Below are positions 35,849 through 44,012 of a stretch of DNA of 64,000 nucleotides, piece after piece (within the stretch, counting starts at the first letter, position 1; each line of letters begins with the position of its first letter). The notes below the pieces were generated by a model. The model was not told the DNA's origin. It worked only from the letters and a program-made list of their open reading frames with translations, and searched no databases. The DNA is taken from NCBI GenBank assembly GCA_963706595.1, contig OY970166.1:3520001-3584000 (forward strand), in the 5' to 3' direction. A program made the position numbers and the translations under genes. The stretch comes from an uncultured cyanobacterium (GTDB lineage Bacteria; Cyanobacteriota; Cyanobacteriia; Cyanobacteriales; Nostocaceae).

Positions 35849-36568
35849 ATGACAACTAAATTACTCAATTCTCTCGCTGCTGCCACAACATTAGCAGGGA
35901 TGATGGTGACAGCAGGAGTTGCTAATGCAGCTTCACTAAGCTACAACAGGACTACAACTTTCGCTGTAACAGACATCAAAGATTTGCCTCTGAGCATTCA
36001 ACAGTTTGACTCTTCACTGGGTACACTTAATAGCGTCTATTTAGATTTCACCGGTGATTTGACTGGAAATGCCGGATTTGAAAATACTGGTAGTGGCGAG
36101 GCTATAATCACAGTGAAATTACGTGCTGAAATCGACCTAGCAAATGCTAATTTCGATTTAGCACCTCCCTTCCCAATTTTTCCAGAGAGTGATGAAACCT
36201 ACACAGTTACTGCCTTTGACGGCATAGTTGATTTTGGTGGTACTTCTGGAATGACTGTAGCTGGACTGACGGCTACAGGTTCTATACCTACCATAACCTT
36301 TACTGATGCCGCAGATTTAGCAGTATTCACTGGTACAGGCTACTTAGACTTTTTATTCTCAGCTATAGCTGAATCAGGTGTGACTGGATCAGGCAACATG
36401 GCATCTTTTGTGACTACCTTAGCTAAAGCAAATCTCACAGTCACATATAACTATGATGATTTGCAGACTGTTCCTGAACCCTCTGCTCTTCTAGGAATTG
36501 GTTTATTTGCCGGCATTGGTGTGTTGTCACAACGCAAACAAAGCTGGTTTAAGATTTCCCATTGCTAG
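35849..36568 (+). CDS. PEP-CTERM surface protein
   Basis: Signal peptide; VPEPS, TM helix, basic tail. Confidence 0.9.
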   Translation: MTTKLLNSLAAATTLAGMMVTAGVANAASLSYNRTTTFAVTDIKDLPLSIQQFDSSLGTLNSVYLDFTGDLTGNAGFENTGSGEAIITVKLRAEIDLANANFDLAPPFPIFPESDETYTVTAFDGIVDFGGTSGMTVAGLTATGSIPTITFTDAADLAVFTGTGYLDFLFSAIAESGVTGSGNMASFVTTLAKANLTVTYNYDDLQTVPEPSALLGIGLFAGIGVLSQRKQSWFKISHC

Positions 36569-36840
36569 ACTTTGATTAGTCGCTGTCGGTGCTAAAGAGA
36601 CTGAAAACGCTGAGGGTAAATCTATAAGACCTGGAGTAATTCAGGCCAAACTCAGTAAATTAAAAATCGTGTGAGCAATAGTCATGCGAGGTTCAAGAAT
36701 AGTGTTTAACTAATTGAGAGTTGGTATTTTTTGGTATTGTCGCAAGTCATACTTGCATAAGTATAGCTTTTCAGCAGTTGCGTGTTTGTCGATTGAGCTA
36801 ATCAAATAGCTGCTGCTGTTTAATTTTTAAATTAATTCTA

Positions 36841-36872
36841 AAAAAACCGATTTTGAGCAAAATCGGTTTTTT
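36841..36872. terminator. Bidirectional terminator-like hairpin
   Basis: AAAAAACCGATTTTG-ag-CAAAATCGGTTTTTT. Confidence 0.75.
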
Positions 36873-37020
36873 TGTATCAAATTCGACACAGAGAAAGGAT
36901 TAAAGCTTGTAACTACACCACAACAAGCAAGAAATTTGGAATTTCTCCAAATTTGCTTCCTAGAGCTTACTAATAGACCTCAATAAACTAGACATTAATA
37001 TACATATGTGTACAAATTCT

Positions 37021-37173
37021 CTACATTTTCTCTCTAGCCAGCCTCTCTATAACATCACTAAGGCTAGTAGCCTTCATCGCAACTCGCTGGACTTCTAGCC
37101 AAGCTATTGCTGTAGGAGTGAGTGTCATTGTAAATTTCCTCTTTTTCTCGTCGTAAATTTTCTGGCGTGACAT
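37021..37173 (-). CDS. Small ribbon-helix-helix (CopG-like) protein, 50 aa, below the ORF-track cutoff
   Basis: MSRQKIYDEKKRKFTMTLTPTAIAWLEVQRVAMKATSLSDVIERLAREKM*; AAGGAG RBS upstream. Confidence 0.7.
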   Translation of the reverse strand: MSRQKIYDEKKRKFTMTLTPTAIAWLEVQRVAMKATSLSDVIERLAREKM

Positions 37174-37233
37174 ACTTGATCTCCTTTATTAATACGTGTA
37201 CAATATGAGTATAACAGTAATTGAGGTCGAACA

Positions 37234-38385
37234 ATGCTGCTATCCAGGAAAACTCAGCTAAATCTTACAGATGCCCAAAAGCAATTAATGAGTAAACACG
37301 CTGGTATATCCAGGTTTACCTACAATTGGGGTTTAGCTACCTGGACAGCATTGTATAAAGATGGCTTTAAACCCAATCACTTCATTTTGAAAAAGTTCTT
37401 TAATAACGAGGTAAAGACAGCACTACCCTGGATTAAAGAAAAAGGTATTTGTCAAAAAATTACTCAATATGCTTTTGACAATCTTGGCAAAGCATTTAAA
37501 AACTTTTTTGAGAAAAGAGGTGATTACCCAAGATTCAAGAAGAAAAATGTCAACGATAGTTTTACTATAGATGCAAGCGGTAAACCTATTCCTGTAGGCG
37601 GTAAATCAATAAAACTATCTACGATTGGCTGGGTAAAAACTTATGAATGTCTGCCACACACTACTTGCAAATCAATAACTATTAGTAAGCGTGCTGGTGA
37701 TTGGTACATAGCTTTTACTTATGATGTAGTTACAGAGTCAAATGTCAAATCCTACCCATCTGTAGGTGTTGACTTGGGAATCAAAACCCTAGCTACACTG
37801 TCTACTGGCGTTGTAATTGAAAACCCAAAGGCTTACAGAAAAGCTAAAAAGTTATTAGCAAGACGGCAAAGAAAAATACAACGCAAACAGAAAGCATCTA
37901 ACAGGTATAGAAAGCAGAAAAACTTAATTGCCAAAACTCACAAACGTGTATCTGATATCAGGTTAGACAATACCCACAAAGCTACAACACATATTTGCAA
38001 AAACCACGCAGTTGTAGCTATTGAAAATTTAAATGTTAAAGGTATGTTGTCTAATCACAAATTAGCTGGTGCTGTTTCCGATGCTAGTTTTTATGAGTTT
38101 AGAAGACAGCTAGAATATAAATGCACTAAGTTTGGATCTAAGTTAGTAGTTGTTGACCGTTGGTATCCATCCAGCAAAACTTGCTCTAATTGTGGACACA
38201 AACAAGAAATGCCTTTAAAAGAAAGGACATTTAACTGTGGTAATTGTGGACATAGCTTAGATCGTGATTTAAACGCGGCGATCAACTTAAATAATTACGC
38301 AAGAAACACGGAGGGCTTACCCGTGTCTGAACGTGGAGGGTTAATTGCGCCGACGCTACCCTGTGAAACGTTAAATAATGTCTAG
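37234..38385 (+). CDS. tnpB: RNA-guided endonuclease TnpB
   Basis: RuvC GVDLG / IENL / DRDLNAA intact; CxxC..CxxC zinc ribbon. Confidence 0.93.
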   Translation: MLLSRKTQLNLTDAQKQLMSKHAGISRFTYNWGLATWTALYKDGFKPNHFILKKFFNNEVKTALPWIKEKGICQKITQYAFDNLGKAFKNFFEKRGDYPRFKKKNVNDSFTIDASGKPIPVGGKSIKLSTIGWVKTYECLPHTTCKSITISKRAGDWYIAFTYDVVTESNVKSYPSVGVDLGIKTLATLSTGVVIENPKAYRKAKKLLARRQRKIQRKQKASNRYRKQKNLIAKTHKRVSDIRLDNTHKATTHICKNHAVVAIENLNVKGMLSNHKLAGAVSDASFYEFRRQLEYKCTKFGSKLVVVDRWYPSSKTCSNCGHKQEMPLKERTFNCGNCGHSLDRDLNAAINLNNYARNTEGLPVSERGGLIAPTLPCETLNNV

Positions 38386-38449
38386 ACAAGTCTAGGTTTT
38401 ATATAGCAGACTGCTAACCTCGTACTGGGAGTTAAAACCTGGGGAATTT

Positions 38450-39307
38450 ATGCAAAAAGCATCTGCGGCTGATTTGGCTATGGTGGCACATAATATTAAA
38501 TTATTGGTTCTGGATATAGATGGCACTATTTCTGGAGAGTCTAACACTGTGAGCGAACCTGTCAAGCAGGCGATCGCCGCAGTACAAGCTAAAGGAATTC
38601 AGGTGGCGATCGCAACTGGTCGGATGTATTGTTCCGCTTTACGCTTCCACCAAGAACTTAACTCTGTACTACCATTATCAGCTTATCAAGGCGCTTGGAT
38701 TCAAGACCCAGCTAATCAGAAAATTCATCGCCATTGGGCTGTTCCCACGGATATGGCGCACCAACTACTAGATTACTTTGAACAGCCGCATCTGCGATCG
38801 CTCTTATCTGTCCACTTCTATATCAATGATCAGCTTTACGTGCGGGATTTGAGCCAAGAAAGTCGAATTTATGCCGAACGTTCTGGTATTACTCCGATTC
38901 CTGTGGGCGATTTGCGCCAAGTCCTCACCAATGAACCCACTAAAATATTAGCTTTGTGCGACGATACGGAAGTGATCAACGAGCTATTGGGGGACTTGCG
39001 CCGCCAATACACACCTGCTGAACTGTATTTGACAACATCTGTGGCGACCTTTTTTGAAGCCACTAATCCCTTAGTTAATAAGGGAACTGCTGTGCGCTAC
39101 ATTGCCGAAGAACTGCTAGGCTTAGAAAGCAGCAATGTGATGACTATTGGTGATAACTTTAATGATTTGGAAATGCTGCAATATGCTGGTATTGGTGTAG
39201 CGATGGGTAATGCTCCAGCAGGTGTGCAGGCGATCGCGCAATGGGTAGCTCCTCATGTAGAAAAAGATGGAGTTGCAACTGCTGTTGAAAAGTTTTTACT
39301 TTCCTAA
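38450..39307 (+). CDS. Cof-type HAD-IIB hydrolase
   Basis: DIDGT, ATGR, KGTA, GDNFNDLEM, AMGNA. Confidence 0.92.
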   Translation: MQKASAADLAMVAHNIKLLVLDIDGTISGESNTVSEPVKQAIAAVQAKGIQVAIATGRMYCSALRFHQELNSVLPLSAYQGAWIQDPANQKIHRHWAVPTDMAHQLLDYFEQPHLRSLLSVHFYINDQLYVRDLSQESRIYAERSGITPIPVGDLRQVLTNEPTKILALCDDTEVINELLGDLRRQYTPAELYLTTSVATFFEATNPLVNKGTAVRYIAEELLGLESSNVMTIGDNFNDLEMLQYAGIGVAMGNAPAGVQAIAQWVAPHVEKDGVATAVEKFLLS

Positions 39308-42662: not shown

Positions 42663-44012
42663 TTGACATCCTCACCGCCCTGAAAGTGCGGTGATTCCAA
42701 GAATCACTTCTTGAGCTTCCTCTTTCCGCGACCCGACTTACTAGGAGGGATTTCTCCACCCAAGCAGAGGTCGATGTCTCCAGAGGCGTTAGTTCCGACG
42801 TGACCCGCCGTACTTAATGCTTTTTCTAATATGTTCCGCGCCGCGTTCCAATCCCTGTCTTGGGTATGCCCACAATATGGACAAACATGAGTTCTAGTGC
42901 TGAGAGTCTTTTTGACAACCTCACCACAATTAGAACAATTCTGTGAAGTGTAGTGGGGGGGAACGGCAACTGTCACCACACCAAACACTTTGCCAAAATA
43001 CTCAACCCATTCACGGAACAGCGACCACGAAACGTCACTAATCGATTTAGCCAAGCGATGATTCTTGACCATATTCCGCACCTGCAAATCTTCATACGCC
43101 ACGAGGTCGTTAGACTTCACTACGCACCTTGCTGCCTTAACAGCAAAGTCTTTACGCTGGCGACTTACTTTGAGATGCTTCCGTGCAAGTCTATTTCTAA
43201 ACTTGACTCTATTTTTGGAGCCTTTTTTAGTCTTGGACATCCGGCGTTGCAACCGTTTCAAAGACTTCTCGCTTTTACGCAGATGACGCGGATTTGGAAC
43301 TGTTGCCCCGTTGCTATCGGTGTAGAAATGGTTCAAGCCAACATCAATCCCAATAGTTTTACCTGTTGGTTCTCGCCTTTCTACTCGCTCATGGTCAATG
43401 CAAAACTGGCAATAATAGCCATCGGCACGACGTACAACCCGCACTCTTTTAAACTGTTTAAGTTGGTAGAAATGCAGGTCACGAGTTCCCCAGAGTTTAA
43501 AGGTTCCTGCTTTGAAGCCATCAGAAAAAGTGATCTGCCTCCGGTCATCAGAAAGTCGCCACCCAGAGGTTTTGTACTCAACAGAACCATGTGTTTGTTC
43601 CTTCTTGAACCGTGGATATCCTTTTTTCCCTGGCTTGCCTTTTTTGCAATTATCAAAAAATCTAGCGATTGCAGACCACGCTCTTTCAGCACTAGCCTGT
43701 CTTGCCATCGAGTTCAATTTGGCTACCCAAGGGAACTCAGTATTAGCAGCAAGGATAGCACAGAACTTACTCAGGTCATATCGACCAATGCCCTTGTTAT
43801 CCATCCAGTATCTCAAGCAAGCATTGCGAACAAACCGCGCAGTTCTAATTGCTTCGTTCAGCGATTGATACTGTTCGTCTTGTCCCTCAAGTTTTGCCTC
43901 GAATACCAGCATGATGATTACGTCAGTTGCACCAACGTAATTTTATCATAATCATGAACAACAATCATAAAAAGCCGTCGTAGAACGACGGGGCTTTAGA
44001 CCCAACTCTTCG
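42663..44012 (-). mobile_element. IS200/IS605 family tnpB-only element (1350 bp)
   Basis: Inserted 3' of TTTAC, ends TCAA, subterminal hairpins at both ends, no TSD. Confidence 0.92.
42704..43912 (-). CDS. tnpB: RNA-guided endonuclease TnpB
   Basis: GIDVG / YEDL / DRDWNAA RuvC residues; zinc ribbon. Confidence 0.95.
   Translation of the reverse strand: MLVFEAKLEGQDEQYQSLNEAIRTARFVRNACLRYWMDNKGIGRYDLSKFCAILAANTEFPWVAKLNSMARQASAERAWSAIARFFDNCKKGKPGKKGYPRFKKEQTHGSVEYKTSGWRLSDDRRQITFSDGFKAGTFKLWGTRDLHFYQLKQFKRVRVVRRADGYYCQFCIDHERVERREPTGKTIGIDVGLNHFYTDSNGATVPNPRHLRKSEKSLKRLQRRMSKTKKGSKNRVKFRNRLARKHLKVSRQRKDFAVKAARCVVKSNDLVAYEDLQVRNMVKNHRLAKSISDVSWSLFREWVEYFGKVFGVVTVAVPPHYTSQNCSNCGEVVKKTLSTRTHVCPYCGHTQDRDWNAARNILEKALSTAGHVGTNASGDIDLCLGGEIPPSKSGRGKRKLKK

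Follow-up and report, generated by a model that had tools for sequence, protein, structure and literature searches.

A transposase-less IS607-type TnpB element from a cyanobacterium, with a predicted Arc-like repressor gene divergent from tnpB

Arc-like open reading frames (ORFs) accompanying TnpB were first reported, in IStrons and IS elements, by Zedaveinyte et al. (10.1101/2023.11.20.567912). The main text of Moon, Zedaveinyte, Wiegand and Sternberg (2026, bioRxiv 10.64898/2026.09.24.754181) subsequently describes ChIP-seq binding of Arc at the two-way transposon promoter—the panel including elements with only arc and tnpB, again bound at the promoter—along with a reporter assay in which a native tnpB promoter is repressed; some of the homologs gave no specific binding. 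In cyanobacteria, ‘Arc_1’ and ‘Arc_2’ regulators are described as divergent from cas12k in type V-K CAST (Ziemann et al., PMC9938897; see also PMC12416283), and Altae-Tran et al. (PMC10691335) describe archaeal RHH/MazE–TnpB pairs, for which an antitoxin role is proposed from cofolding. For the IS607 family itself, Chen et al. (PMC6188088) describe phased TnpA sites in the ends of IS1535, as short motifs about 10 bp apart.

The locus considered here lies in a 64,000-nt stretch of cyanobacterial DNA (‘the window’ throughout; its own genome is referred to as G000). A first-pass annotation had proposed a non-autonomous TnpB element with its own transcriptional repressor, and held the arrangement to be uncharacterised; it had in fact already been reported by Zedaveinyte et al., with binding and repression shown in the text of Moon et al. 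The transposase-less element with its predicted Arc repressor is a new cyanobacterial example of an arrangement known from other bacteria. We find support for the core proposal—a non-autonomous, IS607-like TnpB element with its own ribbon-helix-helix (RHH) repressor—and judge its parts, taken jointly, to be probably the best explanation for the locus (Table 1); the small DNA-binding gene in the transposase slot most likely serving to damp the element’s own RNA-guided DNA cutter.

Table 1. Features of the element, in window coordinates
Feature	Position	Strand	Remarks
Non-autonomous IS607-type element	36964-38409		AG core at both ends
Target motif GAG	36963..36965	+	Crossover core AG at 36964-36965; a single copy in the empty site
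Left end	36966..37025	+	TAGACC at 36974, then four helically phased repeats
arc-like gene, 50 aa, predicted RHH repressor	37021..37173	-	Family, dN/dS, weak fold matches
Predicted sigma70 tnpB promoter	37176..37204	+	-35 TTGATC (37176), 17 bp, -10 TACAAT (37199-37204)
Candidate Arc operator ACGT-GTACAAT-ATGA	37194..37208	.	Half-sites in inverted orientation flank the -10 box, 7 bp between them
tnpB translation-start region GAGGTCGAACA	37220..37233	+	Joint of the arc module with different tnpB genes
tnpB, 383 aa	37234..38385	+	RuvC D180/E264/D345 and zinc finger intact
Predicted omegaRNA scaffold	38305..38409	+	Overlaps tnpB 3' end and right end
Putative guide flank	38410..38429	+	Matches donor joint or empty allele after GAG

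Boundaries, ends and a plausible transposase in trans

With window positions 36400-38900 as the query against 61 genomes, most relatives rejoin the right flank at 38408, and contigs from two public runs likewise exit the element at 38408-38410. The orthologous loci define an empty site, CCTAG-AG-ACTG, with a single AG, against which the insertion is 1444 bp long and carries AG at both ends. The boundaries first proposed were therefore correct to within the 2-bp core, the empty site predicted at the time being 2 nt too short: 8 of the 18 orthologous loci printed read CTAGAGACTG, with substitutions in the rest. Neither the element nor the 50-aa ORF was found at any of these 18 loci, presence of the ORF there being the outcome that would have counted against the original proposal; the ORF lies inside the element, and we reject the idea that it forms part of the host site.

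All 17 left junctions of the element group have GAG ahead of the left end, none with a C at position -4; as the anchors were chosen on AG, only the G is a free result. This GAG is likely to be the TAM of TnpB too. Several insertion sites were found for the element group, and GAG followed by a 10-nt guide match occurs nowhere in G000. The element is flanked by a HAD hydrolase gene and by one that matches PEP-CTERM weakly (E 0.0056, below the cut-off). It ends 40 bp short of the start codon of the hydrolase gene (38409-38450), which is on the same strand as tnpB, and read-through or a displaced promoter could place that gene under Arc control. To the left, about 20 bp present just beside the insertion site in two relatives (L004 and L005) are missing from the window (36950-36958), and a 34-bp near-perfect palindrome at 36840-36873, found in relatives too, is possibly a two-way terminator or protein site.

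In the left end, the repeats that follow TAGACC—TAGACA (36989), TATACA (36999), TGTACA (37009) and TCTACA (37020)—share the pattern T-x-x-A-C-A and are spaced in steps of 10, 10 and 11, the fourth overlapping the arc stop codon; their phase is identical in four other copies (L031, L032, L034, L267), and by analogy we regard them as candidate TnpA-binding motifs. Inverted copies lie in the right end at 38379 and 38389, the AG core follows at 38408-38409, and the end itself finishes ...TATAGCAG. Crossover thus falls at a 2-bp core, with neither terminal inverted repeats nor target duplication beyond the core, and with short, roughly helically phased end motifs inverted between left and right; the window element is an IS607-family derivative without its own transposase. 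The earlier description of ends with TAGAC repeats ‘rather than hairpins’ holds for the repeats, which are IS607-like and present at both ends, but not for the hairpins, as the right end contains a small one (CTAGAC-AA-GTCTAG). TCAA is the right end of IS605 elements; ends of that type were considered and rejected for the window element, where the IS605 combination of subterminal hairpins with a TCAA right end is absent.

There is no room for, and no match to, a serine-recombinase TnpA gene between the two ends. The TnpB belongs to an IS607-associated clade: at L043-L045 a ~65%-identical TnpB directly follows an IS607 tnpA and has the same right end, with L278 and L292 also placing the clade with IS607 tnpA. 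Against the NCBIfam models IS607_TnpB (NF038280) and IS200_TnpB the window protein scores 236 and 289 bits (cut-offs 350 and 425). Elsewhere in the same genome (G000:C1:1675835-1676970, L268), an intact 216-aa IS607 tnpA, its product scoring 208 bits against NF033518 (cut-off 110), is followed by an internally deleted tnpB; and since this element has AG-core ends and a right end near-identical to that of the window element, mobilisation of the latter in trans by the L268 TnpA is plausible.

TnpB itself passes the Pfam cut-offs for OrfB_IS605, Cas12f1-like_TNB and HTH_OrfB_IS605, and scores 295 bits against NF040570 (cut-off 100); the intact RuvC D-E-D triad previously noted is borne out, with a zinc finger besides. 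For the predicted omegaRNA, a consensus built from nine related ends has two-sided change in 11 of 26 pairs, the region alone folding no better than shuffles (single-sequence z -0.8); the element has no Rfam match at gathering score, group I introns included. Contigs from two RNA runs cover part of the element, one (X2) identical to 37030-37257 and the other (X3) spanning 36995-37301 with 24 differences; we reject these as evidence for transcription, for they span the promoter and show neither strand, start nor level. Another TnpB in the window (42704-43912, minus strand; 402 aa) is ~30% identical to the product of 37234-38385, has a 92%-identical copy at G000:C1:3791461, and no small divergent ORF was found upstream; whilst at L062, L075, L076 and the tnpA loci L271-L296, TnpB-like proteins of ~475 aa lie within IS607 ends, with arc or tnpA, their Pfam matches absent or sub-cut-off and their NCBIfam TnpB scores weak.

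The arc-like gene and its linkage to tnpB

We recover the 50-aa ORF (37173-37021, minus strand) as first drawn, with KFTMTLT at residues 13-19, SLSDVIERLAR at 37-47 and AAGGAG 7 nt before the ATG, as well as the 60-bp gap that separates it from tnpB; the ribosome-binding motif is missing from the G003 copy. It is a real gene under purifying selection. Homologs occur in 123 of 389 genomes of the family (E<=0.01) and matches to an arc-family profile in 31 of 301 genomes of the order (E<=1e-6), with 32 representatives passing E<=0.001 in a 50%-cluster library; the named loci are cyanobacterial, for example Scytonema, Calothrix, Rivularia, Microcoleus, Coleofasciculus and Okeania. Across 374 pairs (84 sequences, pS 0.05-0.6) the median dN/dS is 0.086 and all values lie below 1, the window gene’s own comparisons beyond G003 being saturated at synonymous sites; this ratio and the gene’s conservation lead us to reject a chance frame. 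The frame is also open in 84/84 homologs, a circular observation as they were picked in that frame.

Assignment of the product to the RHH proteins is consistent with the modelling, if weakly supported: the strand pattern, two helices and the matches all agree with the first-pass call, every match being weak. In the AlphaFold model (pLDDT 87) an extended N-terminal stretch precedes helices at 20-33 and 38-48, the monomer forming no strand; the outward-facing strand residues would be K13, T15 and T17. Foldseek returned nothing at E<=0.001, its best match being NikR (E 0.28), and VIA-align placed the N-domain of MazE9 at Z 4.3 (rmsd 1.9, 36 aa), NikR at 4.0, the RHH of PutA at 3.4 and Arc repressor at 3.0, with all structural matches at Z<5; except where the title says so, we take most of these rows to be RHH proteins, many RHH antitoxins among them. 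At the sequence level, RHH_1 matches 3 of 25 arc-family members (best E 0.0014), the window protein itself having no match in Pfam or NCBIfam; in ESM Atlas the clusters at 0.90 are unnamed and one at 0.88 is RHH_1, which we treat as no more than a lead, and a PDB sequence search with the family alignment gives one weak, partial match (E 0.23). A word-indexed protein search found only a fragment of the protein itself, and no relatives were found in IMG/VR contigs, plasmids or GenBank phages at the sensitivities used. Other cyanobacteria have ~555-aa proteins that begin with a distant copy of the domain (L100, L107, L109).

To assess linkage, loci L031-L260 were scanned with the arc-family profile and duplicates merged, giving 96 distinct loci at >=80 bits, six of which were dropped for having <300 nt beyond the start codon. 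The co-occurrence check suggested with the first-pass annotation comes out in its favour: tnpB homology lies on the divergent side of arc at 84 of the 90 loci kept, starting within 200 nt in 78 and represented by weak or internally broken matches in six; the loci are often near copies, so these are not counts of independent events. The six loci without tnpB homology include L053, which retains the first tnpB codons. No IS607 tnpA lies between arc and tnpB in any of the 90 (one has a tnpA match beyond tnpB), and an arc of the window type is found at 0 of 30 tnpA loci (the best 30 of 337 matches, with 1.5-kb flanks). Distant homologs below 80 bits are mostly without tnpB, some standing beside integrase- or phage-like genes; one 79-bit homolog (L256), also without tnpB, is head-to-head with what looks by eye to be a tyrosine integrase-like ORF.

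A second copy of the element in G000 (L267, C1:4163620-4164888; 96% nt identity) has an intact tnpB and lacks the equivalent of window 37017-37195; arc, the -35 box and the left half-site are thus all gone, and the copy provides a natural minus-repressor control. The deletion lies near a short repeat common to the left end and promoter. As the right half of the arc promoter persists in L267 in decayed form, with no -35 box, we reject insertion of arc with target duplication into an arc-less ancestor, and infer from this one case that the direction of change was loss; with arc lost and tnpB intact, arc is dispensable. Other partial copies are an internally deleted one with part of arc (G008) and one with arc present and tnpB truncated (G003).

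Small divergent genes beside tnpB are ordinary in G000: 8 of 37 tnpB-like loci have, 29-121 nt upstream, a divergent ORF of 45-67 aa with an RHH-like pattern (by eye). The other seven (C1, near 491987, 3221401, 2942849, 3488390, 4635320, 4680619 and 5534377; L261-L266 and L269) form some four other sequence groups, making about five for all eight; a relative of one such group (L036) partners the TnpB clade of the window. Five of the eight ORFs were scanned, one exceeding the RHH_1 cut-off, three giving weak RHH/DUF6364 matches and one no Pfam match; hhalign of the arc-family alignment with two of the other ORFs gave probabilities of 0.2 and 27, and so no firm homology.

The TnpB partners of the arc family were labelled groups A-G, of which B, D and E1 are not alignable with each other (E>=0.003). 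Between B, D and E1 elements the module of left end, arc and promoter reaches 85% nt identity, and Arc 90-94%; the similarity stopping at the tnpB start codon. On a tree of 80 arc genes the TnpB label needs 18 changes (minimum 8; shuffled 44), and a well-supported clade of 14 is made up of D, B and E1 partners, with many other forks unresolved. B-E elements have GG-core ends and A elements AG-core ends, and at L117, L119, L120 and L122 the family is found in IS605-type elements with hairpin left ends (and TCAA right ends in L117 and L119). Elements with tnpA also carry several TnpB groups (A, B, C, E1, E2 and E3; 24 of 30 loci with tnpB), and swapping is therefore not peculiar to arc. Of the distinct junctions between arc and tnpB, 42 of 70 have GGTCGA, as do 6 of 24 between tnpA and tnpB; selection for a ribosome site left before the ATG could account for the precision of the joint.

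Promoter, candidate operator and proposed mechanism

Sigma70 prediction returned one site against 1.8 in shuffles, not significant alone, and homologs have TTGACA-like and TATAAT-like boxes at the same position. The first-pass annotation had placed twin operators on either side of arc, each described as ATTAATA..GTGTACAA with a palindromic TGTACA. The hexamer is indeed present at 37009 and 37197, but the longer sequence is not one motif, its gap measuring 7 nt in the left copy but 1 nt in the right; and only one of the 90 loci, the window itself, has TGTACA on both sides of the gene. Among 58 homologous promoters it occurs in five (shuffled mean 1.2, maximum 5). We reject the twin operators: the left copy is the third of the four end repeats, and reads TCTACA in G003 where the Arc protein is identical, whilst the right copy overlaps the tnpB -10 box.

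From the sequences, an inverted repeat around the -10 box is a likelier candidate. CRT-N7-AYG (window 37195-37207) is present in 49 of 58 promoters of homologs with an xTMTL-type strand (shuffled mean 2.2, the sequences being related), half-site spacings of 5, 6, 8 and 9 being found in 1-5 of the 58; V-N/S-L-S/T-L-type proteins have CRT-N7-AYG in none of their 21 promoters. Sorted by residue, 53/64 T15/T17 loci have the repeat vs 0/23 others, and the left half-site is CGT at 6/7 K13 loci vs 1/46 R13 loci; its presence follows the strand residues across TnpB clades, not the TnpB clade. Saying this, the covariation amounts to one or two phylogenetically independent pairs, a number with which an independent-pairs test cannot reach significance, and the window’s own left half-site (ACGT) deviates from the TCRT consensus. 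The four IS605-type loci have a TCGT-N7-ACGA repeat, in which the -10-like spacer is reversed.

The arrangement that we propose has an arc-type RHH gene and its promoter occupying what would be the slot held by tnpA in autonomous relatives. An IS607 serine transposase made elsewhere would bind the phased end repeats, and excise or insert the element at GAG; TnpB with its right-end omegaRNA would cut empty GAG-plus-flank alleles, so favouring retention. With Arc dimers on both half-sites (37194-37197 and 37205-37208), the tnpB -10 box would be blocked, as probably would the divergent promoter of arc itself, keeping nuclease expression low and buffered against copy number. By analogy with the described Arc proteins, we hold it probable that the dimers bind on either side of the -10 box, repressing tnpB and probably also arc. 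The original view of a repressor controlling its own element’s nuclease is hence retained as regards a conserved gene inside the element, divergent from tnpB and under purifying selection; its TGTACA operators fail.

Four other roles for the small protein were weighed against this one. In the first, the protein would bind the TGTACA copies that flank its gene and perhaps draw the left end and the promoter together in a loop, which would fit the presence of the hexamer at both places in the window; and as CGTGTACAAT is found in four promoters with a K13-type Arc (L034, L052, L085, L142), the right copy does fall within the likely operator. The single locus with both copies, a promoter count within the shuffled range, and a left copy that is a phased end repeat and differs in G003 despite an identical Arc all make this reading very improbable, as does TGTACAAT, which also stands ahead of an unrelated RHH-tnpB pair and of tnpA genes or remnants, as expected for a -10 box. 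An antitoxin that binds and inhibits TnpB directly, after the archaeal, cofolding-based proposal (PMC10691335), would suit the many RHH antitoxins amongst the fold matches. We nevertheless consider this very unlikely because near-identical Arcs partner TnpBs that cannot be aligned; in addition, the genes are divergent and form no operon, the predicted RHH is the only domain of the small protein, TnpB has a canonical RuvC site, and arc has been lost from a copy whose tnpB is intact.

That arc replaces tnpA, travels with the left end and has a stop codon overlapping the last left-end repeat would accord with an Arc whose main function is not to repress tnpB but to influence directionality or mobility from the DNA ends, where it would compete with TnpA or help it in trans; but the conserved inverted repeat sits at the promoter and not at the ends, and one arc family serves AG-core, GG-core and hairpin IS605-type ends alike, so we give this role a very small chance. 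Slighter still is the prospect of a passenger gene that regulates only itself, its promoter driving tnpB by chance: distant homologs do stand beside integrase- or phage-like genes without tnpB, and arc-less copies exist, but the half-sites enclose the -10 box of the tnpB strand, such that binding would hit tnpB, and both the linkage to tnpB and the purifying selection are strong.

An exchangeable left arm, and comparison with described systems

A broader reading, to which we would give somewhat less than an even chance, is that filamentous cyanobacteria possess a single left-arm ‘chassis’—left end, arc, two-way promoter with operator, and ribosome site—which acts as a plug-in replacement for tnpA, and has been joined repeatedly, at the start codon, to at least seven TnpB lineages, some of them unalignable; the arc family having moved among IS607 elements with AG cores, IS607 elements with GG cores and hairpin IS605 elements. 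In autonomous elements TnpA may regulate itself negatively, by binding end repeats that overlap its own promoter, and Arc may restore feedback of this type; a two-residue strand code (K/R13, T/N15) may set the operator. Were the code true, families within one genome would not cross-repress; and, with module swapping, it would account for an RNA-guided nuclease being kept tolerable in elements that lack a transposase, and offer small orthogonal repressor-promoter pairs for cyanobacteria. The census of G000 suggests that repressor capture is routine, and not rare, for non-autonomous TnpB elements.

The window’s arc family, operator and module swapping were not found in the literature searched, although the supplementary tables of Moon et al. 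may list the family: ‘cyanobacter’, ‘Nostoc’ and ‘Anabaena’ have no matches in their main text, and the supplementary list of 8,024 proteins may hold it. The present locus would add cyanobacterial IS607-type elements to those in which Arc controls TnpB; the small family concerned is modelled by neither Pfam nor NCBIfam, and the operator proposed for it is specific and testable.

Like the Arc of Moon et al., as described in their main text, the gene is small and of predicted RHH type, of a kind often left unannotated, inside the element and divergent from tnpB across a two-way promoter, with inverted motifs over the promoter boxes. Their two main examples are autonomous and of Clostridia type (P. 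xylanilyticum and C. botulinum), with arc and tnpA on one strand, whereas here arc and tnpA are never together (0/90 and 0/30 loci) and the ends are those of IS607, with AG or GG cores; the strand residues differ too, N5/N7/T9 in the P. xylanilyticum Arc vs K/R13-T15-T17. With the elements of Zedaveinyte et al., going by the text of that report, ours shares a predicted RHH ORF and an IS607 crossover at a 2-bp core within the TAM, in our case a likely one; unlike their IStrons it has no group I intron at the Rfam gathering score, and its core is AG, not GG.

In the terms set out for the IS607 family in PMC6188088, the window element conforms in having no terminal inverted repeats, no target duplication, short end motifs ~10 bp apart and a tnpB, and departs from it in having an arc cassette instead of a tnpA in cis. 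Type V-K CAST, as portrayed in PMC9938897, similarly place a small reverse RHH gene upstream of a TnpB-derived effector, and do so in cyanobacteria, but our element has no cas12k, CRISPR array or Tn7 genes, its small gene neighbouring a 383-aa TnpB within IS607-type ends; compared by eye only, the sequences of the window Arc and of the Arc_1/Arc_2 given there look unrelated. Finally, the archaeal RHH/MazE-TnpB pairs also have an RHH gene adjoining tnpB. PMC10691335 describes them as non-mobile and places tnpB downstream of its RHH neighbour, the catalytic site being rearranged; the window element, by contrast, belongs to a mobile group with several insertion sites, its two genes diverge, and its D180/E264/D345 site is canonical.
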